NCBI RefSeq assembly: GCF_049973875.1
Contig: NZ_JBMFJI010000020.1
Span: 1 to 15,630 of the forward strand
Direction of reading: 5' to 3'
Source: Acidilobus sp.
GTDB taxonomy: Archaea > Thermoproteota > Thermoprotei_A > Sulfolobales > Acidilobaceae
Length of the DNA: 15,630 nt
Positions 2,500 through 15,217 of the stretch are shown piece after piece (the first letter of the stretch is position 1; each line of letters starts with the position of its first letter). A program made the translations under genes and the position numbers. The notes under the pieces were generated by a model. That model ran no database searches, was not told where the DNA came from, and saw only the letters and a list, made by a program, of their open reading frames with translations.

Positions 2500-2712
2500 G
2501 TGGGATCGCCCAAGAGGGCGCGTAGCTGGGCGATAGTTGGAATAGTCGCTCTCTTGATATTTGCCGTCTACGTGTGGCCGTGGTACAGCCTCGTCCACCC
2601 AACCCTGGCGGGTCTGCCGTTCTTCTACTGGTGGGTCATAGTCTGGTACGTCATCTCGTCCGTCCTCCTCTACTCTATAGTCAAGTACAGGGTTAAGGGG
2701 GATGCATCATGA
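2500..2712 (+). CDS. Small 2-TM membrane protein, DUF3311-like accessory subunit of SSS transporters
   Basis: 70 aa, two hydrophobic helices rich in W/Y/P (WPWYSLVHPTLAGLPFFYWWVIVWY). Stop overlaps the symporter start (ATGA at 2709-2712). Confidence 0.6.
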   Translation: MGSPKRARSWAIVGIVALLIFAVYVWPWYSLVHPTLAGLPFFYWWVIVWYVISSVLLYSIVKYRVKGDAS

Positions 2713-4202
2713 TGACTCCTGATGGCCTGCAGCTTCTGGCGGTATTCCTGGCCCTGTTCGCGGTGTTCGCAGTAATCGGGTTCCTGGGCAGGTACTACAG
2801 GAGGGCCGACCTATCGCAGCTCCACGAGTGGGGCCTTGCCGGCAGGAAGCTCGGGACCGCCCTTCAGTTCTTCCTCCAGGGCGCGGACTTGTTTACGGCG
2901 TACGCAATACTGGCCATACCCTCGGCCGTCTTCGCCCTAGGAGCCTTCGGCTTCTTCGGCGTCGCCTGCGAGGCGATGGTGCTCGCCTTCGTAAGCCTCT
3001 ACATGCCGAGGCTGTGGAGGCTTTCTAGGGACAAGGGCTACATAACCATAGCTGACTACGCCAGGGGCGAGTTCAACAGCACGCTCCTCTCCCTCACCAT
3101 AGTAATACTTGGCATATTTGCTACGCTCTTCTACATAGCCCTGCAGGTCGACGGGCTCTACACGATCCTCGGCACCCTGATGCTCAAGGCGTTCCAGATC
3201 TCCCCGACCTCGCCTGCATTCAAGGAGTACAGCGTTGTGATGCTGTTCGTGACGTTCGCCATTATCGCCGCCTTCTCGTTCACCAGCGGGATAAGGGGCG
3301 TGTCGCTAGGCGCCATATTCAAGGACGTCCTCGTGTGGACTGGCCTGCTGACGGTCATAGTCGTTACCCTAGCAGCCCTGAAGGGCTTCTCTAACCTCTT
3401 CGCTGGCATGCCTTCATATTACCTCTCGCTCCCGAGCGCCAAGGCCCTCGCTTTCACTTCGAGCATGCTTGGCATGGTCTTCTCGGCCTACCTATGGCCC
3501 CACAACATAACTGGCTCCTGGGCGGCCCAGAGCGAAGAGAAGCTCCTGAAGGGGTACGCCCTGACCGTACTCTACGCCATACCGCTTGCCCTGGCCGACG
3601 TGCTCGCCATAGCAGTCTACAAGCTACCCACAGTCTACAGCTTCATAAAGCCGCTCCCACCTGACTCGAGGGGACTTTATGTAATACCGGCTCTCCTCGT
3701 TAGCCTCGTCCCCGGCTGGCTGGCAGGGATAGCACTGCTTGGCATCTTCGTTGGCGGCCTGGTGCCGGCAGCCCTGATGGCCGTGACCGTCGGCAACATG
3801 ACCGGCAGGGACCTGGCGAGGATCGTCAAGCCAGGCATATCTCCCAGGGGCCAGACGACGATAGCTAAGTGGGCAGCTGTTGCATTCGCCTTCCTGTCAC
3901 TGGCGCTCCTCCAGGTCATACCTATGACCTACGCGTTCCAGTTCTACCTGGTCGGCGCTGAGATAGTCCTCCAGTTCCTGCCCATCGTCGTCATACACCC
4001 GTTCTTCAGGTTCATAAGGAAGGAGCTCGCGATCGCCGGCATCTGGGTAGGTTCAATAGTGTCGATCCTACTGACCCTCTACGCTAACCACTTCGGCACG
4101 ATTAAGACGACGCTGTACCATGACATATACACCGGCTTCTTTGGCCTCGCCGTCAACCTAGTCATCGTCTTCCTTAGCCTCGCCTTCCCCAAGGGGCAGT
4201 GA
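2709..4202 (+). CDS. Sodium:solute symporter (SSS/SSF) family transporter
   Basis: 497 aa, about 13 TM helices. N-terminal GLAGRKLG...GADLFTAYAILAIPSAVFALG and the following PRLWRLSR...YITIADYARGEF stretch are typical SSF motifs. Confidence 0.85.
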   Translation: MMTPDGLQLLAVFLALFAVFAVIGFLGRYYRRADLSQLHEWGLAGRKLGTALQFFLQGADLFTAYAILAIPSAVFALGAFGFFGVACEAMVLAFVSLYMPRLWRLSRDKGYITIADYARGEFNSTLLSLTIVILGIFATLFYIALQVDGLYTILGTLMLKAFQISPTSPAFKEYSVVMLFVTFAIIAAFSFTSGIRGVSLGAIFKDVLVWTGLLTVIVVTLAALKGFSNLFAGMPSYYLSLPSAKALAFTSSMLGMVFSAYLWPHNITGSWAAQSEEKLLKGYALTVLYAIPLALADVLAIAVYKLPTVYSFIKPLPPDSRGLYVIPALLVSLVPGWLAGIALLGIFVGGLVPAALMAVTVGNMTGRDLARIVKPGISPRGQTTIAKWAAVAFAFLSLALLQVIPMTYAFQFYLVGAEIVLQFLPIVVIHPFFRFIRKELAIAGIWVGSIVSILLTLYANHFGTIKTTLYHDIYTGFFGLAVNLVIVFLSLAFPKGQ

Positions 4203-5358: not shown

Positions 5359-5367
5359 TTATATTTT
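5359..5367 (+). promoter_or_regulatory. TATA box TTATATTTT for the amidohydrolase gene
   Basis: AT-rich element directly after the upstream TAA, about 30 nt before GTG 5399. Confidence 0.45.
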
Positions 5368-5398
5368 GGCCCGGCCTCCCCAGGCCAGGTGCCTGACG

Positions 5399-6661
5399 GT
5401 GGGCACTCTAGTTATAGAGGACGCGCTTATCTTCGACTCGTCCGGGAGGCAGCCCTTCAGGGGCACTGTAGTAGTAAAGGATAACGTGATAGAGGACGTG
5501 GGGACCAGGGGCGAGGTCAGCCCCCCTGAGGGGGCCAGGGTCATAGAGGCCAGGGGCATGTTCCTGATGCCTGGCCTCATAGACGCCCACCTCCACCTCA
5601 CGGGCTCAAGGAGCGGGAGGATAGAGGAGGACCTGGTGACCCCCATAGGAGTCTTCTTCGCCAGGGCCGTGAGGGACCTGGAGGCCCTGGCTGACGCGGG
5701 CTTCACCACGGTGGTTGACGCCGGCAGCATAGTGGGGCTTCACCTGAGGGACGCCGTGGCCGAGGGCACGGTGAGGGGGCCCAGGGTGGTCGCCGCCGGC
5801 CCCGTGCTCTCGCAGACCTTCGGCCACGCCGACACCCACTACCTGCCGGTTGAGTGGGTAGACTACAGGACGACCAAGAAGCTCACCCCGTTCGCGTCGC
5901 TGATATGCGACGGTGAGGCCGAGTGCAGGAAGGCCGCCAGGCACGCCATGAGGGAGGGGGCCGACTTCATAAAGGTCATGGCGTCGGGAGGGGTGCTCAG
6001 CCAGAGGGACAGGCCGGAGTACAGGCAGTTCACCCTCGAGGAGCTGAGGGCCATCGTTGACGAGGCCAGGGCCGCCAACAGGTGGGTCCACGCCCACGCG
6101 GAGGGCAAGGCGGGCATAGTGAACGCCGCCAGGGCAGGGGTCAAGATAGTGGCCCACTGCGACATGATGGACGAGGAGGCCGCCGAGGAGGTCCTGAAGG
6201 CCGGGGCCACGTGCGTGCCCACCTTCGCCATTGACTACAGGCTGCTGGAGGAGGGCCAGAAGCTTGGGGTGCCAGAGTGGGGCATGAGGAAGATAGCCGA
6301 GCTGGCGGACATACACCTAGAGAACATAAGGAGGGCCTACAGGATGGGCGTCAGGCTGGCCACGGGCACTGACTTCTCGGGCGGCGTGGGCAGGCACGGC
6401 GAGAACGCAGAGGAGGTAGCAATATTCGTCGAGAGGGTGGGCATGACCCCGCAGGAGGCATTAATAGCCGCCACCAGGAACGCCGCCTACGCCGCGGGCC
6501 TGGAGGGCAGGGCGGGCATAGTAGCCAAGGGGGCCCTGGCGGACCTCATACTGGTCGACGGCAACCCGCTCGATAACGTCAGGGTACTCACGGACAGGTC
6601 AAAGGTGAGGCTGGTGGTCAGGGGAGGGGAGGTAATTAAGGACTCGCTCTCCAAGGCCTGA
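5399..6661 (+). CDS. Amidohydrolase-family metal-dependent hydrolase (COG1228-like)
   Basis: LVIEDALIFD...GMFLMPGLIDAHLHL (HxH metal site) and C-terminal GALADLILVDGNPL motif. The ORF track starts at TTG 5366, but that codon lies inside the TATA box TTATATTTT (5359-5367). GTG 5399 is the more plausible start. Confidence 0.85.
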   Translation: MGTLVIEDALIFDSSGRQPFRGTVVVKDNVIEDVGTRGEVSPPEGARVIEARGMFLMPGLIDAHLHLTGSRSGRIEEDLVTPIGVFFARAVRDLEALADAGFTTVVDAGSIVGLHLRDAVAEGTVRGPRVVAAGPVLSQTFGHADTHYLPVEWVDYRTTKKLTPFASLICDGEAECRKAARHAMREGADFIKVMASGGVLSQRDRPEYRQFTLEELRAIVDEARAANRWVHAHAEGKAGIVNAARAGVKIVAHCDMMDEEAAEEVLKAGATCVPTFAIDYRLLEEGQKLGVPEWGMRKIAELADIHLENIRRAYRMGVRLATGTDFSGGVGRHGENAEEVAIFVERVGMTPQEALIAATRNAAYAAGLEGRAGIVAKGALADLILVDGNPLDNVRVLTDRSKVRLVVRGGEVIKDSLSKA

Positions 6662-6710
6662 CCTTTCACCTGTTAAAAGTTACCTCAACCCGTAAATGTG
6701 CCCCTTTCAC

Positions 6711-6738: not shown

Positions 6739-9300
6739 TTGAGAGCATGCGCCGACCTGGGCCCTGACCTGACGCCCACCTGCATAAACGTTGAGCTCAC
6801 AGACGAGGCCCTGCTGGCGGACGGCAAGGTAATAGCCAGGCTCAGCGACGTCAGGAGGGCCTTCGTGGAGCCGGGGGTTAACGTCAGCAGGCTGGTCCTC
6901 GAGCTGAACGACGGGAGGCAGGTGGAGGCCCTCTACTTCACCAGGCCGAGGGAGGACGACTTCAGGAGGATGGCTGAGGCCATAAACAGGAGGCTCAGCG
7001 TTGGGGGCGAGGGCAGGGGCGAGGGCCGCGGGGGAAGGGAGAGGAGGGCGAGCACGGTAAGGTGGCTCTACACCTTCGCTAGGCCCTACAGGAGGAGGCT
7101 CATAATAGGCACCTCCCTGGCGCTTGCGGCGACGGCCCTCAACCTGGTGCCCCCGTACCTGCTGAAGGTGCTCATAGACAGCGTACTTGAGAGCCCGGCC
7201 CACCCGCGCGGCCTCTTCTTGGAGCTCATAGCCACCCTCCTGGGCTCCTACGTGGCGCTGACCATAGTGTCCGCCGTTCAGAACTACGTGCTGAACTCCA
7301 CGGGCTCCATGATAATAAACCACATAAGGCACGAGCTCTACAGGCACGTAGTAAACAACGTCGAGGCGTCGTTCATAGACAGGGTGACGCCGTCAAGGAT
7401 ACTCTCAAGGCTCACCACGGACGCCGGGAACACGAACTGGCTCATGGTCTGGGGGCTGCCTACCGTGCTGACCAACGTGCTCACGGTGATAGGCATAGGC
7501 GTCATACTGTTCACCATGGACGCCAGGCTGGCCATCTACCTGGTCATACCGGTGCCCCTGGTGGCCTACATGATATACAGCTACAGGAGGAAGTCGCACA
7601 GGCTCTACCACAGGAACTGGAGGAACAGCGCCGACGTCACGTCGCTAATAAACGACACCGTGCCCAACTACGTGGTGATAAGGTCCTTCGGCAAGGAGGA
7701 GGCCGTCAGCTCAAGGCTTGAGTCGGGCCTCAGGAGGCTCCTCAGGTCAAGCATAGACATAACAATCATGAACCAGACCTACTGGCCCCTCCTGGGCTTC
7801 CTGCTCTCCCTGGCCACGGTGGTCATATGGTGGGTCGGCGGCACGGAGGTCATAAGCGGCGCGGTTAAGCTGGGCGTCCTGGTGGCCTTTGTAGCCTACG
7901 CGAGCCAGTTCTACGCGCCAATAAACAACCTGGGCAACGTGCTCCCCTTCGTCCAGCAGTCCCTGACCTCGGCGGACAGGCTCAGGGAGCTGCTCGAGGC
8001 CCCCGCCTCAGGCCAGGGAGGCAGTGAGAGGCCCAACATGAGGGGCGACGTGGAGTTCAAGGACGTGATCTTCGGCTACGACCCGCTGGTCCCCGTGGTC
8101 AAGGGAGTGAACATAAGGGTCAGGGGAGGCTCGAGGGTAGCAATAGTGGGCCGCTCCGGCTCCGGCAAGAGCACCCTGGTCAAGCTCCTCCTCGGCCTCT
8201 ACAGGCCCCAGGAGGGCTCAATAACCGTTGACGGCGTCGACGTGAGCAGGATTGACAGGAGGTACTTCATGTCGAGGGTCGCCTACGTGCCCCAGGACGT
8301 CACACTGTTCTACGACACCATTGGGAACAACATAGCCTTCGGGGCGGAGAGGCCCGTGGGTCCCAGGGAGGTAATAGAGGCCGCCAGGGCCGCCATGATA
8401 CACGGCGAGATAGTCCAGTTCCCGCTGGCATACGACACAATAGCAGGCGAGAGGGGCACGTACCTCTCGGGCGGGCAGAGGCAGAGGGTCGGGATAGCGA
8501 GGGCCCTCATAAAGGACCCAGACCTCGTCATACTTGATGAGGCCACGTCAAACCTTGACGTTGAGAGCGAGACGCTGGTGTACCAGGCCATAACTAACCT
8601 GACAAGGGGGAGGACCACCATAATGATAACTCACAACCCGGTGGAGATCATGGGGGCCGAGCAGGTTGTGGTTATGGAGGACGGCAGGGTTGTTGAGGTA
8701 GGCACGCCGAGGGAGCTCATGGAGTCCCGCGGCAAGCTCTACGAGCTCATGTCGTCCTACGGCTACAGCAAGTACGTCCCACCCCCGCCCCCCAGGCCCA
8801 TGAGGGAGGCCCCGATAATAGAGGACCCGTCGGCGGTCAAGGTCATGCCCTCGGGCAGGGGGAGCCTGGTGGACGTAAGCATAGACGGGGTCGCGCACAG
8901 GGGCCTGAGGCCCAAGCTGCTCTTCCCGATCACTCACCCCGAGGTGGTTGGCCTCTACGACGGCGAGGGCAACGAGGTGGCCATAATACTTGACATGAAC
9001 AGGCTGGACGAGGCCTCCAGGAGGGCCTTAACCGACGCCATAAGGAGGGGCCTGGTGAAGTACAGGGTCTCCAGAATCAAGGACATAGTTGCCACGGGCG
9101 ACGGGCTCTCGTGGAGGGTGATAGCAGTGGACGGCTCCAGGAGCTTCGAGGCCTCCGTGCTGTCCCAGAGCAGGGGCGACGTCCTGCTGCTGAACAACAG
9201 GATAGCCGTGATAGACAGCAGGAGCGGCGTGATATACGAGGTCTACCCTGACCAGCTCGACGGCAGGAGCCTTAAGCTGCTCAGGGAGACCGTCGGCTAA
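6739..9300 (+). CDS. ABC exporter half-transporter (6-TM TMD plus NBD) with an extra N-terminal and two C-terminal PH-like modules
   Basis: TMD begins at LYTFARPYRRRLIIGTSLALAATALNLVPPYLLKVLID. NBD has Walker A GRSGSGKST, signature LSGGQRQR, Walker B LVILDEATS and H-loop ITHN. The N-terminal 105 aa, and the roughly 165 C-terminal aa after a PPPPPRP linker, are mutually similar modules (...DGRQVEALYFTRPREDDFRRMAEAINRRL vs ...EGNEVAIILDMNRLDEASRRALTDAIRRGL). GGGAG lies 7 nt before TTG 6739. Confidence 0.9.
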   Translation: MRACADLGPDLTPTCINVELTDEALLADGKVIARLSDVRRAFVEPGVNVSRLVLELNDGRQVEALYFTRPREDDFRRMAEAINRRLSVGGEGRGEGRGGRERRASTVRWLYTFARPYRRRLIIGTSLALAATALNLVPPYLLKVLIDSVLESPAHPRGLFLELIATLLGSYVALTIVSAVQNYVLNSTGSMIINHIRHELYRHVVNNVEASFIDRVTPSRILSRLTTDAGNTNWLMVWGLPTVLTNVLTVIGIGVILFTMDARLAIYLVIPVPLVAYMIYSYRRKSHRLYHRNWRNSADVTSLINDTVPNYVVIRSFGKEEAVSSRLESGLRRLLRSSIDITIMNQTYWPLLGFLLSLATVVIWWVGGTEVISGAVKLGVLVAFVAYASQFYAPINNLGNVLPFVQQSLTSADRLRELLEAPASGQGGSERPNMRGDVEFKDVIFGYDPLVPVVKGVNIRVRGGSRVAIVGRSGSGKSTLVKLLLGLYRPQEGSITVDGVDVSRIDRRYFMSRVAYVPQDVTLFYDTIGNNIAFGAERPVGPREVIEAARAAMIHGEIVQFPLAYDTIAGERGTYLSGGQRQRVGIARALIKDPDLVILDEATSNLDVESETLVYQAITNLTRGRTTIMITHNPVEIMGAEQVVVMEDGRVVEVGTPRELMESRGKLYELMSSYGYSKYVPPPPPRPMREAPIIEDPSAVKVMPSGRGSLVDVSIDGVAHRGLRPKLLFPITHPEVVGLYDGEGNEVAIILDMNRLDEASRRALTDAIRRGLVKYRVSRIKDIVATGDGLSWRVIAVDGSRSFEASVLSQSRGDVLLLNNRIAVIDSRSGVIYEVYPDQLDGRSLKLLRETVG

Positions 9301-9340: not shown

Positions 9341-10012
9341 TTGAGCTGCGACCTGGTCAAGGTCTCCGAGGAGGCCAGGGGAAGGGGCGTCTTTGTGGTC
9401 TACACCACTGTTGAGCTCAGGGGGAGGGCTGAGGGCGACCCCCTGGGCGGCGTCGTCTCAGACTACGTGGCCCACGCGAGGTCCTCCATCACCCTTGAAG
9501 GGCTCAAGCATCACCCGGTGGTCAGGGCCTACAGGGACTTCTTCTGGAGGCTCGGCATAGACCCCACCAAGGTGAGGCCCAGCTCCGAGGCGCTTGCCAG
9601 GAGGGCCCTTAGGGGCGAGTTCCCCAGGGTGAGCCCTCTGGTTGACGCGGGAAACCTCGCCTCCCTGAGGACCCTCGTGCCCATAGGCATCTACGACCTC
9701 GACCTCGCCTCCCCTCCCTTCACGGTGACGCTGTCGAGGGGCAGGGTCAGGTTCTACCCCATAGGGGGCAGGGAGCAGGAGCTGCCCGAAGGGTACCCAA
9801 TAATGGTTGACTCCAGGGGCGTGGTGGTGCACCTCTACGCCCACAGGGACTCCTCGCTGACCTCGGTGAGGGAGTCCACCAGGAGGGCGCTGATAGTAGG
9901 CACCGGCGTCCCAGGGGTTGAGAGGGGGCTGGTGGGTCAGGCCGTTGAGCTCACAGTTAAGCTGTCCTCAGCGGTGGGCTGGGCCCAGGAGGGCCCCACC
10001 TGCGAGGCCTAA
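9341..10012 (+). CDS. Free-standing B3/B4 tRNA-binding domain protein (PheRS beta-subunit B3/4-like, COG3382-like)
   Basis: HPVVRAYRDFFWRLGIDPTKVRPSSEALARRAL matches the B3_4 domain core (AY...LG.DP.K.RPS.EAL.RR). 223 aa. Confidence 0.65.
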   Translation: MSCDLVKVSEEARGRGVFVVYTTVELRGRAEGDPLGGVVSDYVAHARSSITLEGLKHHPVVRAYRDFFWRLGIDPTKVRPSSEALARRALRGEFPRVSPLVDAGNLASLRTLVPIGIYDLDLASPPFTVTLSRGRVRFYPIGGREQELPEGYPIMVDSRGVVVHLYAHRDSSLTSVRESTRRALIVGTGVPGVERGLVGQAVELTVKLSSAVGWAQEGPTCEA

Positions 10013-10070
10013 GTGCTGAGCTGATCAACTTATAACCTTTGTCAAGGCTTTCCTCCCGGGTGGGGAAACG

Positions 10071-10421
10071 GTGAACATGTTCCAGGCCCTGGGGGTCAGC
10101 CTCTCGTCGCCGACGGGCATAGCCATCACCATAATAGAGTTCCTGCTTGGCTTTGGCGCTGGGTACGTGCTGTTCAAGGGGCTTAAGTACATAATTGCGT
10201 TCTTCCTTATACTGATAGTGGGCGACCTCCTGAGCGTGTGGAAGATCAGCGCGCTGAACTTCAAGTCCCTGGCCGCCGGCGTGGCCTCGGGCAACACCAC
10301 GGAGCTGGCGGAGGGGCTCAGATCTCTCGCGCCCTTCCTGGGCATCATAGAGCCCCTGTTCACGTCAATCATAATATTCGTGGGGTTCCTGATAGGGGCC
10401 GCGGTGGCCTTCTTCAAGTAA
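10071..10421 (+). CDS. Hypothetical membrane protein (about 4 TM)
   Basis: 116 aa with hydrophobic helices. GTG 10071 or ATG 10077 start, preceded by TATA-like CTTATAACC (10029-10037). Oligo-T terminator after the stop. Confidence 0.55.
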   Translation: MNMFQALGVSLSSPTGIAITIIEFLLGFGAGYVLFKGLKYIIAFFLILIVGDLLSVWKISALNFKSLAAGVASGNTTELAEGLRSLAPFLGIIEPLFTSIIIFVGFLIGAAVAFFK

Positions 10422-10478
10422 AAAGAAAAAGGGGAGAAAACAGAGGGGAAATGTGGGGCCTTTTTACGGGCTAGCGGC
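10422..10478. terminator. Bidirectional terminator region between convergent genes
   Basis: + strand GGGGCC then TTTTTAC (10455-10467). Minus-strand reading of 10421-10430 gives TTTTTCTTTT after the DsrE-like stop. Also four G-runs (10431-10470). Confidence 0.45.
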
Positions 10479-10901
10479 TCATATGTAGAGGACCACATCG
10501 GATGAGGCGGCCTCGCTGAGGAAGGTGGCGACCCCGGCTACGTCGTCTACTAGGCCTGGGTCGAAGTCCTCCTTTCTAAGGCCGAGCATGTCAGCCACGA
10601 GGCTGCACGCCACGACCCTCACCTTGCCCTCCCTCTTGGCGTCCCTCAGCATCGAGTGCCAGCTCACGTTCTTCTGCGACAGGTACTTCATGGCCGCGTC
10701 CCTGTACTCCTCGTAGTCCTTGCCGAGCTTCGAGAACCTCTCGACCTCGCCCCTCCTGAAGGCCACCTGGGCGAAGCTGAGGAAGATGAAGACCTCCATG
10801 CCCTCAGCAACCGCGCCCTGGGCTATCACCGCGGCCGAGAGGAGCTTCTCGTAGGTCGGGGATATGAGGAATATCGAGACCTTCCCCGCCAAGCCCCGCA
10901 C
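10479..10901 (-). CDS. DsrE/DsrF-like family protein (putative sulfur-relay or peroxiredoxin-like fold), single Cys
   Basis: N-terminal GKVSIFLISPTYEKLLSAAVIAQGAVAEGMEVFIFLSFAQVAF fits the DsrE-family start (KVAIIVSSGPY...AL.FA.AA...GHEV.VFF). One conserved-looking Cys (VVACSLVAD). GTG start, with T-tracts after the stop. Confidence 0.55.
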   Translation of the reverse strand: MRGLAGKVSIFLISPTYEKLLSAAVIAQGAVAEGMEVFIFLSFAQVAFRRGEVERFSKLGKDYEEYRDAAMKYLSQKNVSWHSMLRDAKREGKVRVVACSLVADMLGLRKEDFDPGLVDDVAGVATFLSEAASSDVVLYI

Positions 10902-10954: not shown

Positions 10955-12097
10955 GTGCAGCTCACGGCTTGGCCCCTTCACCTCCCACGACGGTATACCA
11001 ATATTAACCTGCAGCTCCACAAAGTCGCGGTGCGCCGCTTGCTCTCAAGGAATCCAACGGAGCCCTCTCAGAAGATTGAGGGCTCAGGGGTGGCCCAGGC
11101 GGTGAGGCTTGCCATAATAGCCGAGCTCGACGCCATAAACCTCTACCAGCAGCTCGCCGACGCCGTGAGCGACGAGTCCGTGAGGAAGGTCCTCCTTGAC
11201 GTGGCCGGCGAGGAGAAGACCCACTTCGGCGAGTTCCTCGAGCTCCTCAGGAGGCTCGACCCGGAGCAGGTCAAGGAGCTCGAGGCCGGGTCCAAGGAGG
11301 TGGCTTCGCTGGTCAGCAGCCAGGGGAAGGGACAGGGAGGCAGCCCGGGGGACCCCCAGCCCCTTGGGCCCCTGAGCGGCGACGAGGCCGAGTCCCTCAG
11401 GTCGGCCATAGCCGAGGCCCTGGGCAGGGCCAGGGCCCTGAGGTCGTCCCTGCCAGTGGCGGTGCTGGGAGACGGCTCCCTCGTGGCCCCATCAGAGGCC
11501 ATAACTGAGGGGGACGTGATTAAGGCCTCCTCCCAGCCAGTGCAGCTCTCAAGGCTCATAACCTACTTCGACGTGGAGCAGGACCTCATAGACTACTCCC
11601 GCAGGCTCTCCGCCCCCCTCAGGCCCGCCTCCGCCATCAGGGCGGCCGAGCTCCTCGGCCTCGAGGAGGACGCGCTCATAGCCAGCTCGCTGGCCTCCTC
11701 GGCCTCAGTTAAGGAGAGCGGCAGCTGGTCGTCCCCAGGCTCGTTCACCTCCCTCCTGGCCAAGGCCCTGGAGGACCTGAAGGTCAGGTACCCCTCCTAC
11801 CTGCTGATAATTTCCCCCTCGACGAGGGCCAGGCTGGCCTCGGTTGTTGACCCAGCCGGGGTTGACGAGCTGAGCAGGGCCTCGAGGCTGGTCGACAGGG
11901 TCGTCGTCTCCCCCGGCGTGGGCGACGGCGTGGCAATACTGGTCCCGCCCTACCCTGACGTAGCTGACGTGGTGGTGGGCTCGGACCTGAGGCTTGACTA
12001 CCTTGGCCCCAGCGGAAGCTCCCACAGGTTCGCCGTCTGGGAGACCGTAGCCGTGAGGGTCAAGTCGCCCCAGGCCATAGCCGTAATTACGGGCTGA
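10955..12097 (+). CDS. Encapsulin (family 1 nanocompartment shell) with N-terminal fused ferritin-like protein (Flp) domain; PfV-type
   Basis: The N-terminal region VRLAIIAELDAINLYQQLADAVSDESVRKVLLDVAGEEKTHFGEFLELLRRLDPEQ is a ferritin-like half-bundle with an ExxH motif, closely resembling the Pyrococcus PfV N-domain. The C-terminal region (VVVGSDLRLDYLGPSGSSHRFAVWETVAVRVKSPQAIAVI) matches the encapsulin C-terminus (GQDLSIGY...[21 protein letters not shown] in T. maritima). A Gly/Pro/Ser linker joins the domains. The start is leaderless, after an AT-rich divergent promoter. Confidence 0.85.
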   Translation: MQLTAWPLHLPRRYTNINLQLHKVAVRRLLSRNPTEPSQKIEGSGVAQAVRLAIIAELDAINLYQQLADAVSDESVRKVLLDVAGEEKTHFGEFLELLRRLDPEQVKELEAGSKEVASLVSSQGKGQGGSPGDPQPLGPLSGDEAESLRSAIAEALGRARALRSSLPVAVLGDGSLVAPSEAITEGDVIKASSQPVQLSRLITYFDVEQDLIDYSRRLSAPLRPASAIRAAELLGLEEDALIASSLASSASVKESGSWSSPGSFTSLLAKALEDLKVRYPSYLLIISPSTRARLASVVDPAGVDELSRASRLVDRVVVSPGVGDGVAILVPPYPDVADVVVGSDLRLDYLGPSGSSHRFAVWETVAVRVKSPQAIAVITG

Positions 12098-12175: not shown

Positions 12176-14491
12176 TTGATGAGGATGAAGAACTTCAAAG
12201 GCGCCCTGGAGTACGTCCTGCTTGCCCTGGTCGCGGCCCTCACGGCAGCCCTGAGGCTCGTGCCGTACCTGAGGTACGGGCCAACGCTCAGCGAGGTAGA
12301 CCCATATGAGTACCTCTGGCTTGCTAACTACTTCTACTCCCACGGCCTCGGCGGCCTCCATGGCCTTGCCCACTCGGCCCTCTGGTGGTACCCGTGGGGC
12401 AGGGACTTCCTGAGCAGCGAGTACCTCGGGCTCCCGTGGCTCTCGGCCCTGGCCTCAAGGCTCACGGGGGCCAGCGTCGAGGTCGCCCTCTCGCTGTCCC
12501 CGGCGGCTTTTGCGGTGCTCGGCGTGGTCGGCGTCTACCTGGCCGTGAAGGAGGCCGGGGGCAGCTCCGTGGCTGCCCTGACGGCCGCGGCCGGCTTCGC
12601 CTTCCTGCCGATAACTGTGCTGAACCACGGCTTTGCCACCGACCCGGCCAAGGTCTTTGACGGCATAGCCCTGCTCCCCTACCCGCTCTACTTCATAGCC
12701 AGGTCGTACAGGGCGCCGAAAGCGACCACGTCAATAGCGATGGCGGCCGCTGCCGGGGCGTCGGGGGGACTCATAGCTTGGTTCTGGGGAGGCTACCAGT
12801 ACATGGCCCTCGTCGTGGCCCTGTTAGCGGTAACTGAGCCGTTCCTGAACGAGCCCTCCCTGCAGGGCCTCCTGAGGCTGCTCGCCGCCTGGGCGGCCTT
12901 CGCTGCCGTGGCCCTGACCTCGCCGGCGGTGAGCCTCCACCTCTTCACCAGGGGGGTCGGGCTGGCGGCCGAGGCGTCGCTGCTCGCCTACGCCTTTGAG
13001 TACCTCGCGCTTACCAGGCTCACGGGCCTCAGCAGGCTCAGGGTGCACGCGTGGACCCTGGCAGTGTTGGCCGGCCTCGCGGCGGTCGCCGTGGCCTCAG
13101 GCATGGTGAGCCTCCCCTCCAGGGTCCTCATGGGCCTCGGCGTGACCCCGCCGCCCGGGGCTGTGGTGCCCCTGACCGTGCAGGAGTACATGGGCGTCCC
13201 GCCGCAGCAGGTGATATCATCGTATGCGCCCTTCTTCGTCCTGTCGCTGATAGGCGTGGTGATCATGATAGCGGGCAGGGCGACCGGGAGGCTGACCCCC
13301 TCCCCCACCGACGCCATAGCCGCGGTGTCGCTGGAGCTCATGATAGTCTTCACCTACGCCTCCGTCAACCAGGCCTACTACCTGCCGTCGGCGGCCCTCT
13401 ACGCGATAATAGCTGGGGGCGTCTCAATAGCCCTGGTCGGGTCGCTCAGGCCAGCTTATGCCGCCGCGAGGCGCCGCAGGCCCCAGCAGGCCACCGCCGG
13501 CAGGGGCGCGGCGATAGGGGCCGCCCTGCTGGCGGCCATGGTGTTGGCGTCCATGGCCTACTACGCCTACGTTGACTACAGCGCTCTACAGCTCGAGGCG
13601 CCCTCGATAGAGACCGGCTGGCTCGGGGCCCTGAGGTCCCCCGACGGGAAGGTGATAGTTCCAGTCAACAACGCCTGGCCCCTCGCCCTCAGCTACGTCA
13701 GGAACGAGACGCCCCCGGGCTCGGTGGTGGTGACCTGGTGGGACTACGGCTACTGGGTGGGCGTCCTGGCCAACAGGGCGTCGGTTGTCGACGGCTCAAC
13801 TATAAACGGCACCCAGATAGAGCTCGTCGCCGACGCCCTCACGGCCCCCGTTGAGCAGTCAGGGGCCTACCTGAGGATGCTGAGGCTCCCGACAAACGAG
13901 ACGTACGTCATGGTATATGACGTCTTCCTCGGCATATACGACAACTCCACGGGCTCCGTGACCATAATGCCCTTCCCCAACGTGGTCAGCGTGGGCCCAG
14001 GGGTCTACGCCGTGACCTACGGCCTGGGCGACATGGCCAAGTCATACCAGATGCTCAGGATAGCCGGCAGGGTCAACCCTTACTCGGGCCAGGCGCTGTT
14101 CACCGGCTACTCCTCCGTCAGCTACCAGTCCAACGTAGAGGTCCTCCAGTTCCCCGGCCTCGCGGGCAGCCCGGCCAAGAACGTGAGCAACACGCTCAAC
14201 ACCACCATATACGACCTCATCATGTACGGCCTCTCGCAGCTGGGCAGGTACGGCGTCCTGGGCCAGGGGGCCTCGTGGCTCAGGAGCGCCTCCTCGTTCA
14301 CCCCGGCGGCCGTGGCCTACGTGGACCCCACGGGCAGCATGGCCCCGGCCCCAGTCAGCGCCCCGAGCCCTGAGCCCTACTACGTGCCCGTGGCGTTCTT
14401 CGTCTCTGTGCCCTACTCGTGGCAGGGGCCCGGGGTCACGTACTTCTACGCGGTCATAGTGTTCCTCTACAGGTGGGGAGGACTGCCTTAA
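12176..14491 (+). CDS. aglB: AglB, archaeal oligosaccharyltransferase (STT3 family)
   Basis: 771 aa with a multi-TM N-terminal domain containing a DPYEY (EL1 Asp) motif. WWDYGYW catalytic motif in VVVTWWDYGYWVGVL. Large C-terminal extracytoplasmic domain with several N-x-S/T sequons. Confidence 0.9.
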   Translation: MMRMKNFKGALEYVLLALVAALTAALRLVPYLRYGPTLSEVDPYEYLWLANYFYSHGLGGLHGLAHSALWWYPWGRDFLSSEYLGLPWLSALASRLTGASVEVALSLSPAAFAVLGVVGVYLAVKEAGGSSVAALTAAAGFAFLPITVLNHGFATDPAKVFDGIALLPYPLYFIARSYRAPKATTSIAMAAAAGASGGLIAWFWGGYQYMALVVALLAVTEPFLNEPSLQGLLRLLAAWAAFAAVALTSPAVSLHLFTRGVGLAAEASLLAYAFEYLALTRLTGLSRLRVHAWTLAVLAGLAAVAVASGMVSLPSRVLMGLGVTPPPGAVVPLTVQEYMGVPPQQVISSYAPFFVLSLIGVVIMIAGRATGRLTPSPTDAIAAVSLELMIVFTYASVNQAYYLPSAALYAIIAGGVSIALVGSLRPAYAAARRRRPQQATAGRGAAIGAALLAAMVLASMAYYAYVDYSALQLEAPSIETGWLGALRSPDGKVIVPVNNAWPLALSYVRNETPPGSVVVTWWDYGYWVGVLANRASVVDGSTINGTQIELVADALTAPVEQSGAYLRMLRLPTNETYVMVYDVFLGIYDNSTGSVTIMPFPNVVSVGPGVYAVTYGLGDMAKSYQMLRIAGRVNPYSGQALFTGYSSVSYQSNVEVLQFPGLAGSPAKNVSNTLNTTIYDLIMYGLSQLGRYGVLGQGASWLRSASSFTPAAVAYVDPTGSMAPAPVSAPSPEPYYVPVAFFVSVPYSWQGPGVTYFYAVIVFLYRWGGLP

Positions 14492-14524: not shown

Positions 14525-15217
14525 TTGGACTCCCCCTCAAGGCTAGCCAGGGAGCTCGCTAAGGAGCTGGAGTCGGAGCCGTCGGCAGAGGAGTTCGCCA
14601 AGAGGTGCCTTAACTCCATGAGGTGGGGAGGCAGCGCGGTCCTCATGGTTGTTGACGCCTCCTTCACGTCGGCGGGGCTCAGCTACTTCACCGCCGTGGT
14701 CCCCAGGGTGCTCAGGTTCAAGGAGGAGCTCGTGGACTCTGGCATGATAAGGGGGCTGGAGGACCTGGCCTCGGCCGACGAGGGCCTCCTGCTGAGGTAC
14801 TGGAGGAACAGGAGGTCGTGGTCAGTGGCCAAGGGGGTCGCCTCCTCGCTGCTCAGGTTCGGGGACGACGACAGGTCAAGGCTCAGGTCCTGGGCGGCCC
14901 AGTCAAGGCTTGACGGCTGGAGGTCGGACCCCGTGGGCTCGGTCAAGGGGGTGGGGCTCATAACTTACCAGTACCTCAGGATGATGGGGGGCGTGGACAC
15001 CGCCATGCCTGACAGGATAGTCAAGAAGTACGTTCAGGCCGTGGGGGAGAGGGCCGGGGTGCCGGTGCCGCGGGGCGACGTGGAGTTCGTGAAGTTCCTC
15101 GAGTCCCTGAGGCAGTACGGAGTCAGCCCCGTCGCGGTCACCTGGCTCTCGTGGCTTAAGCTTTCAGAGGGCGAGGAGGTGCTGAGAAGGTACGGGAACC
15201 TGGTTAACCTGCTTTAG
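14525..15217 (+). CDS. HhH-GPD superfamily DNA glycosylase-like protein (no Fe-S cysteines, no hairpin Lys)
   Basis: VKGVGLITYQYLRMMGGVDTAMPDRIVKKY resembles the EndoIII helix-hairpin-helix LPGVGRKTA...VDTHVFRV, with Asp at the corresponding spacing. N-terminal SAVLMVVDASFTSAG resembles EndoIII ELLIAVLLSAQATD. About 230 aa. No C-terminal Cys cluster. Confidence 0.45.
   Translation: MDSPSRLARELAKELESEPSAEEFAKRCLNSMRWGGSAVLMVVDASFTSAGLSYFTAVVPRVLRFKEELVDSGMIRGLEDLASADEGLLLRYWRNRRSWSVAKGVASSLLRFGDDDRSRLRSWAAQSRLDGWRSDPVGSVKGVGLITYQYLRMMGGVDTAMPDRIVKKYVQAVGERAGVPVPRGDVEFVKFLESLRQYGVSPVAVTWLSWLKLSEGEEVLRRYGNLVNLL

Follow-up and report, generated by a model that had tools for sequence, protein, structure and literature searches.

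A single gene encodes an ABC exporter with soluble domains at both ends

The window analyzed here is a 15,630-nucleotide stretch of DNA from Acidilobus sp. (contig NZ_JBMFJI010000020.1 of assembly GCF_049973875.1). It carries a plus-strand gene (6739..9300, stop included) that begins with TTG and encodes a protein of 853 aa. Based on the open reading frame (ORF) list, the translation and comparisons with homologs, we describe the product as a bPH-type domain, an ATP-binding cassette (ABC) exporter core and a DUF1854 domain joined in one chain, and we argue that it is likely the fused archaeal form of a module encoded by two genes in bacteria. Pfam placed ABC_membrane at residues 121-394, ABC_tran at 455-604 and DUF1854 at 720-850. 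The domains are arranged as an N-terminal soluble domain, a Gly/Arg linker, a domain with six transmembrane (TM) helices followed by the ATPase, a Pro-rich linker and a C-terminal region of about 155 aa. An annotated protein of A. saccharovorans 345-15 (P0001; "ABC transporter, ATP binding protein") is 97% identical to the Acidilobus sp. ORF over 100% of its length and has the identical start. Together with the translation and the Pfam matches, this relative confirmed the gene boundaries and the domain layout given in the original prediction, which had been made from the sequence without database searches.

We considered a downstream start that would delete the N-terminal domain and rejected it; the domain is kept from its first strand in about 70 homologs, and this conservation validates TTG (6739) as the start codon. 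Within the 78-bp gap that follows the preceding amidohydrolase gene, some 60 bp before the TTG, lies the motif TTAAAAGTTA (6673-6682), which looks like an archaeal TATA box and, if it acts as one, would let the ABC gene be transcribed from a promoter of its own.

The exporter core, all of it on the plus strand, has the organization of a half-transporter. The six-helix transmembrane domain (residues 121-394, 7099..7920) was delimited by PF00664 (E 2.5e-41, profile positions 1-273 of 274) and by hydropathy peaks, and it lies N-terminal to the nucleotide-binding domain (NBD; residues ~438-672, 8050..8754; PF00005, E 1.7e-33). Direct reading of the sequence found every catalytic ATPase motif intact: the Walker A motif GRSGSGKST (8149-8175), the ABC signature LSGGQRQR (8464-8487), the Walker B motif with its catalytic glutamate, LVILDEATS (8524-8550), and the H-loop ITHN (8626-8637). 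The 6-TM plus NBD core proposed in the original prediction is thus borne out, and the gene encodes, on its own, an ABC exporter half-transporter that is catalytically competent.

The N-terminal region is a bPH-type domain

Residues 1-91 (6739..7011, plus strand) form a PH-like, bPH-type domain assigned to the cytoplasm, with seven beta-strands and a C-terminal helix at residues 69-91. The seven-stranded beta-sandwich, the helix that caps it and its structural similarity to solved PH domains place it in the PH-like superfold. At the sequence level the relationship was far less visible. The window's own residues 1-108 had no Pfam match even at E<=10 and none in NCBIfam or among PDB sequences, and thus stayed below the cutoffs of the Pfam bPH models. 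Among 38 relatives of the domain, 8 matched bPH_2 (best E 1.3e-4) and 8 matched bPH_3 (best E 7.5e-4), and these matches support the assignment only weakly. The family has motifs of its own that are strongly kept in about 70 homologs: TDLDxxL, VEEGIGIxKL and AYFTKxKxxxFRxLAxAIN. The suggestion that the N-terminal module is PH-like and of bPH type therefore holds, through the fold and through the weak matches of its relatives. The region that Pfam and NCBIfam leave unannotated at the N-terminus of these proteins is a bPH domain, and it is common to the archaeal and bacterial systems described below.

Between this domain and TM1 lies a disordered, basic, Gly/Arg-rich linker (residues 92-108, 7012..7062, plus strand) with a predicted local distance difference test score (pLDDT) <50; the stretch GGEGRGEGRGGRERR occupies residues 89-103 (7003-7047). 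Both the sequence and the length of the linker differ among homologs, and the Gly/Arg-rich form is peculiar to Acidilobus. Its basicity is consistent with a position on the cytoplasmic side of the membrane, as the positive-inside rule would predict.

The C-terminal region is one DUF1854 domain with two repeated lobes

The NBD is connected to the C-terminal region by a linker (8755..8829, plus strand) that contains PPPPPRP (8779-8799, residues 681-687), a little upstream of where the C-terminal region had originally been taken to start. In the family alignment, the Pro run was seen only in the query, in P0001 and, in part, in P0002; among the other homologs neither the sequence nor the length of the linker is constant. 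The poly-Pro linker, which had been proposed as a feature of the architecture, is thus confined to the relatives of Acidilobus.

The region beyond it matched DUF1854 (PF08909) at E 7e-27, with 94.3-98.8 bits against a gathering cutoff of 26.8 and coverage of profile positions 1-129 of 130. The earlier assignment to a DUF1854-type extension was therefore correct, as one full-length domain. The AlphaFold2 (AF2) model of the region (pLDDT 92.5) has two beta-rich lobes with a helix ending each. Lobe 1 (residues 698-772, 8830..9054, plus strand) consists of five beta-strands and a helix and holds the PFPI(S/T)xP motif and a unit composed of a hairpin and an "LDxxS" helix. Lobe 2 (residues 773-853, 9055..9297, plus strand) has six beta-strands and a terminal helix and holds the family motifs GDxLxW and (G)RRNV together with a second hairpin-"LDxxS" helix unit. 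When an 80-sequence family alignment was used to build a profile of each lobe and the two were compared with hhalign, they shared a 31-column hairpin and helix repeat (probability 79-87%, E 1.5e-5 to 4e-6) that aligns VGLYDGEGNEVAIILDMNRLDEASRRALTDAI with IAVIDSRSGVIYEV-YPDQLDGRSLKLLRETV. The profile score was 25.5, whereas the highest of 60 column-shuffled controls reached 13.6. Only this final hairpin and helix unit aligns; the remainder of each lobe does not.

No close structural relative of the domain emerged. Searches of PDB sequences with the N- and C-terminal regions, as single sequences and as profiles, returned only chance-level matches (CDK7, aspartokinase, DnaB intein). The nearest solved folds are DUF1285 (PF06938; PDB 2ra9 and 2re3) and the DNMT1-type RFTS domain, to which DUF1854 has no detectable sequence similarity; about 70-80 of 178 residues align with these structures, and Foldseek gave no significant match. 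From the partial alignment and the lack of sequence similarity we conclude that DUF1854, a two-lobed, internally repeated domain, is without a close solved relative. DUF1285 has been described as a two-domain fold of repeated beta-meander and helix units whose similarity to PH domains is merely "superficial" (PMC2954208), wording that fits DUF1854 equally well. A word-indexed homolog search with residues 698-853 alone returned no match, not even the 97%-identical protein, which reflects a limitation of retrieval and is not evidence about the domain.

The N- and C-terminal modules are not demonstrably related

The original prediction had gone further, proposing that one N-terminal and two C-terminal PH/GRAM-like modules are duplicated copies of one bPH-type domain, on the strength of a shared "DG"-type strand pattern and three similar basic helices. 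These elements, like the Gly/Arg linker and PPPPPRP, are all present within a few residues of where they had been placed. The helices lie at residues 75-86, 760-772 and 843-853, and in the AF2 models each is terminal and follows a beta-hairpin whose tight turn is the "DG"-type motif. Part of the proposal stands: the N-terminal domain is PH-like, and the two C-terminal modules with their similar end helices are related by the 31-column repeat, which scores far above shuffles. Homology between the N-terminal domain and the lobes found no support. Pairwise comparison of the N-terminal profile with lobe 1, lobe 2 or the whole DUF1854 domain gave hhalign probabilities of 0.4-7%. Against the two C-terminal modules the N-terminal module scored 14.2 and 10.7, values that 2 of 60 and 1 of 60 shuffles, respectively, also reached. 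The similarity is marginal, and the alignments span only 11-15 beta-hairpin columns, a resemblance consistent with a generic amphipathic hairpin that turns at a Gly.

Nor did the lobes resemble PH domains by other routes. The DUF1854 structure model, searched only as a whole, had no Foldseek match in the PDB at E <= 0.001; none of 34 DUF1854 sequences matched bPH models at meaningful E-values; and the DUF1854 profile found nothing among PDB sequences. In neither structure nor profile did the lobes specifically resemble PH, GRAM or bPH domains, or the N-terminal domain of the protein itself. We regard descent of all three modules from one bPH-type ancestor as highly improbable, and read the protein as a bPH domain at one end and an internally repeated DUF1854 domain at the other.

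The fused architecture is the norm in archaea

Essentially all of the best 77 protein clusters in the homolog search combined ABC_membrane, ABC_tran and DUF1854. The fused architecture is found in about 75 archaeal protein clusters, mostly of 830-890 aa and 39-75% identity, and the N-terminal domain is common to them. The lineages represented are Sulfolobales, Thermoproteales, Acidilobales, Ignisphaera, Nitrososphaerales, Methanomassiliicoccales and Nanobdella. The arrangement of N-terminal domain, ABC core and C-terminal extension therefore does recur in other archaea, and it cannot be called unusual, as had been supposed: it is the norm in these clusters and, moreover, a fusion of a known two-gene bacterial system. 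The 853-aa protein is an ordinary member of a catalogued but uncharacterized family. In Vulcanisaeta thermophila (BCLI01000001.1, 4001-6599 of the retrieved locus), an ABC protein of 701 aa and a DUF1854 protein of 168 aa are called as two genes that overlap by 14 nt, which represents either a natural archaeal split form or a frameshift or sequencing error.

A two-gene bacterial system has the same three parts

The best NCBIfam matches of the Acidilobus protein were NF052233, "cyanophycin metabolism-associated ABC transporter" (CphA_assoc_ABC), and NF052234, the corresponding DUF1854 family protein. Like the system that these two models describe, it has a PH-type N-terminal domain on the ABC protein and a linked DUF1854. 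In this bacterial system, DUF1854, an ABC transporter and two cphA-like genes are cofit in Acidovorax and Cupriavidus according to Price et al., who propose that the system exports a polymer of amino acids and that DUF1854 is a subunit of the transporter, and who also noted fused versions (bioRxiv 10.1101/072470).

We searched 1.84 billion representative proteins with the profile of the archaeal N-terminal domain and obtained 55 matches at E <= 0.001. The weaker of them fell on the N-termini of proteins whose match to NF052233 begins at model position ~20. One such protein, P0145 (729 aa), matched the profile at E 7e-7, and its N-terminus matched bPH_3 with 24.5 bits, above the Pfam cutoff of 23; its gene has another ABC gene before it and a separate gene for DUF1854 after it. 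The tandem arrangement of two ABC exporter genes of the CphA-associated type before the DUF1854 gene, on a JGI metagenome contig (L004, 3-3027), suggests a heterodimeric transporter in that lineage.

An example of the split form comes from the Ralstonia wenshanensis megaplasmid p56D2, on which two consecutive cphA genes are followed, in divergent orientation, by genes for an ABC protein (768 aa) and a DUF1854 protein (156 aa; KOL96_03340 and KOL96_03345). Beta-proteobacteria in general have this arrangement, with the two genes beside a pair of cyanophycin-synthetase-like genes. The archaeal DUF1854 profile and the stand-alone DUF1854 protein of Ralstonia matched along their whole length (probability 97.9%, E 3e-13), and the archaeal N-terminal profile was collinear with residues 37-125 of the Ralstonia ABC protein over 87 columns, including DLDxxL, although this match was weak (E 0.0023). 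From the collinear N-terminal domain, the DUF1854 match and the split loci, we conclude that the window protein is a fused form of a conserved bPH-ABC plus DUF1854 module. These comparisons show that, in bacteria and archaea alike, this ABC lineage has been passed on along with its two accessory domains. The Ralstonia ABC protein (locus L007, 7884-10683) also has a weak zinc-ribbon-like match at residues ~134-162 (DZR, E 3e-4, below the Pfam cutoff).

Genomic neighborhood of the exporter gene

To place the gene in context, we compared the window with seven other archaeal loci (Saccharolobus, Caldivirga, Thermoproteus, a 75%-identical relative, a Nitrososphaerales contig, Vulcanisaeta and Methanomassiliicoccales), each with 4-7 kb of flanking sequence per side where the contig allowed. 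No gene of any kind recurs beside the homologs across these seven loci. Downstream, 41 bp past the ABC stop codon, begins a plus-strand gene for a free-standing B3/4-domain protein of 223 aa (9341-10012; PF03483, E 6.6e-25), which had been singled out as an odd partner of the exporter. The gene is real; its partnership is rejected, with none of the seven other loci having it beside the homolog. The adjacency is best read as chance, and the B3/4 neighbor should not be read as a partner in annotation.

Upstream on the plus strand is an amidohydrolase of 431 aa (5366-6661), whose best NCBIfam match is a Caulobacter-type Xaa-Pro dipeptidase (294 bits versus a cutoff of 500). It is suggestive that a dipeptidase-like gene should stand next to an exporter related to a cyanophycin-linked one. 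A conserved tie to the metabolism of cyanophycin dipeptides was considered and rejected, since none of the other loci has the gene.

Other features of the window

Further downstream, a plus-strand ORF of 380 aa (10955-12097) combines a domain like the encapsulated ferritins (EncFtn/EncB, residues ~36-129) with a family 1 encapsulin shell (~181-377), and its domain content identifies it as a putative fused cargo-shell encapsulin. Comparable encapsulin cargo-shell fusions are found in Pyrococcus furiosus and other archaea. The next plus-strand ORF (12176-14491, 771 aa) matched the STT3/AglB core weakly (E 2.6e-7) and reached 40 bits with the archaeal STT3 NCBIfam model, whose cutoff is 450; it is a predicted divergent oligosaccharyltransferase.

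Near the start of the window, the plus-strand CoA-transferase III ORF at 693-1625 matches its Pfam profile only from position 67 onward, and the plus-strand ORF at 125-454 matches just the C-terminal half of YbjQ_1 (profile positions 55-103). Starts or frames around 125-1625 may therefore deviate from the mechanical ORF calls. No Pfam match was obtained for the ORFs at 2709-4202 (plus strand, 497 aa), 10025-10498 (minus strand, 157 aa) and 14525-15217 (plus strand, 230 aa); the first of these lies within a stretch of reversed GC and AT skew. The window contained no tRNA and no Rfam element that we could find.

Interpretation and proposed mode of action

Taken together, the data lead us to identify the protein, structurally and evolutionarily, as a single-chain bPH domain, exporter core and DUF1854, the fused archaeal form of the bacterial bPH-ABC/DUF1854 module, and we hold this identification with good confidence. 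Several observations weigh against it. The protein scored 393.8 bits with NF052233 against a cutoff of 880, and 40.9 bits with NF052234 against 150, and did not qualify as an equivalog of either; these sub-cutoff scores indicate a distant relative rather than an ortholog. The ABC core scored nearly as high with MsbA models (385 bits). The direct link between the N-terminal domains of the window and of Ralstonia is weak (probability 12.5%), and the connection rests on intermediates. No cphA or other conserved partner was present in the 15.6-kb window or in the retrieved flanks of the seven archaeal loci, whole genomes not having been searched. Finally, the docking positions and roles that we propose below for bPH and DUF1854 draw on analogy.

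These same points bear on whether the Acidilobus protein might be a true functional ortholog of the bacterial cyanophycin-associated exporter that exports a cyanophycin-like amino-acid polymer. The two NCBIfam models are its best matches, its three-part module is that of the cphA-linked Ralstonia locus, and the dipeptidase-related gene at 5366-6661 lies directly upstream on the same strand. Both scores are under half of the equivalog cutoffs, however, the association with cphA seen in Ralstonia is missing from the window and from the seven archaeal loci, and the amidohydrolase is not kept at those loci, which makes orthology of this kind hardly probable. Since no synthetase is encoded nearby, the cargo in Acidilobus is probably not a cyanophycin-like polymer from a neighboring synthetase.

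Somewhat less improbable, but still unlikely in our judgment, is an MsbA-type general lipid or drug exporter in which the accessory domains are cytosolic sensors that tune the ATPase to a small ligand. MsbA and MsbA-related models scored 385 and 379 bits, close to the 394 of the CphA-associated model, and the gene, like those of housekeeping exporters, occurs by itself in differing genomic surroundings. A nucleotide-type ligand has also been proposed (PMC2954208) for DUF1285, which among solved families comes closest to DUF1854 after the DNMT1-type RFTS domain.

The exporter fold has an N-in topology. With the N-terminus inside and a basic linker before TM1, both bPH and DUF1854 would lie on the cytoplasmic side. 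Fusion or adjacency keeps the two domains linked to the transporter across domains of life, and because of this linkage they would be expected to act together with it and not as independent proteins. The protein would act as a homodimeric ABC exporter in which the bPH domain is tethered to TM1 by the basic disordered linker and DUF1854 hangs from the ATPase domain. Other ABC ATPases carry C-terminal regulatory domains, and by analogy DUF1854 would most likely dock under the ATPase dimer as an obligatory regulatory or substrate-handling subunit. HlyB-type exporters, for their part, carry N-terminal cargo-binding domains, and the juxtamembrane bPH domain would by the same reasoning most likely recruit cargo or a partner. 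We propose these specific roles only tentatively. A broader and equally speculative possibility is that bPH and DUF1854 form an ancient, obligatory cargo-loading or gating device of one ABC exporter lineage that extends from beta-proteobacteria to Crenarchaeota, with DUF1854 having arisen by internal duplication and with another, housekeeping cargo in archaea, such as a peptide or an amino-acid-derived polymer. If this is true, the single-chain thermostable archaeal form would show a new way in which an ABC exporter is regulated or supplied with its substrate.

The family is widespread, with about 75 archaeal clusters in addition to the cphA-linked bacterial systems, and it is uncharacterized both biochemically and structurally. 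To what was known of it, the present analysis adds the bPH identity of the N-terminal region, the two-lobed, repeated nature of DUF1854 and the recognition that the archaeal proteins are natural fusions of the two-gene module. A thermostable single-chain form is a convenient target for cryo-electron microscopy; its structure could reveal the action of bPH and DUF1854 on the exporter and bears on the proposal of amino-acid-polymer export in bacteria. For annotation the gain is modest; we suggest the name "bPH/DUF1854 domain-containing ABC exporter".

Comparison with known systems

Among the closest counterparts are the archaeal ABC transporters annotated as "DUF1854 domain-containing protein" (Sulfolobales, Thermoproteales, Nitrososphaerales, Methanomassiliicoccales and Nanobdella), which have the full architecture, the length and the motifs of the N-terminal domain and DUF1854 that are seen in Acidilobus, at 39-50% identity. 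Only the linkers differ, the Gly/Arg-rich and poly-Pro forms being peculiar to Acidilobus. Compared with the Pfam families bPH_2 (PF03703) and bPH_3 (PF14470), the window's N-terminal domain is set apart by its own TDLDxxL, VEEGIGIxKL and AYFTK motifs. Its placement is also distinct: in typical bPH_2 proteins the domain comes after two TM helices, whereas here it lies N-terminal to an ABC exporter.

The bacterial NF052233 plus NF052234 system has the same parts in the same order as Acidilobus, namely a bPH-type N-terminal domain, a 6-TM and NBD core and DUF1854. The zinc-ribbon-like segment that lies between the PH-type domain and TM1 in Ralstonia is absent from the archaeal proteins. Some loci of the bacterial type have two tandem ABC genes, whereas Acidilobus has one, implying a homodimer. 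The ABC protein and DUF1854 are encoded by separate genes in bacteria, while in Acidilobus the parts are fused in one chain.

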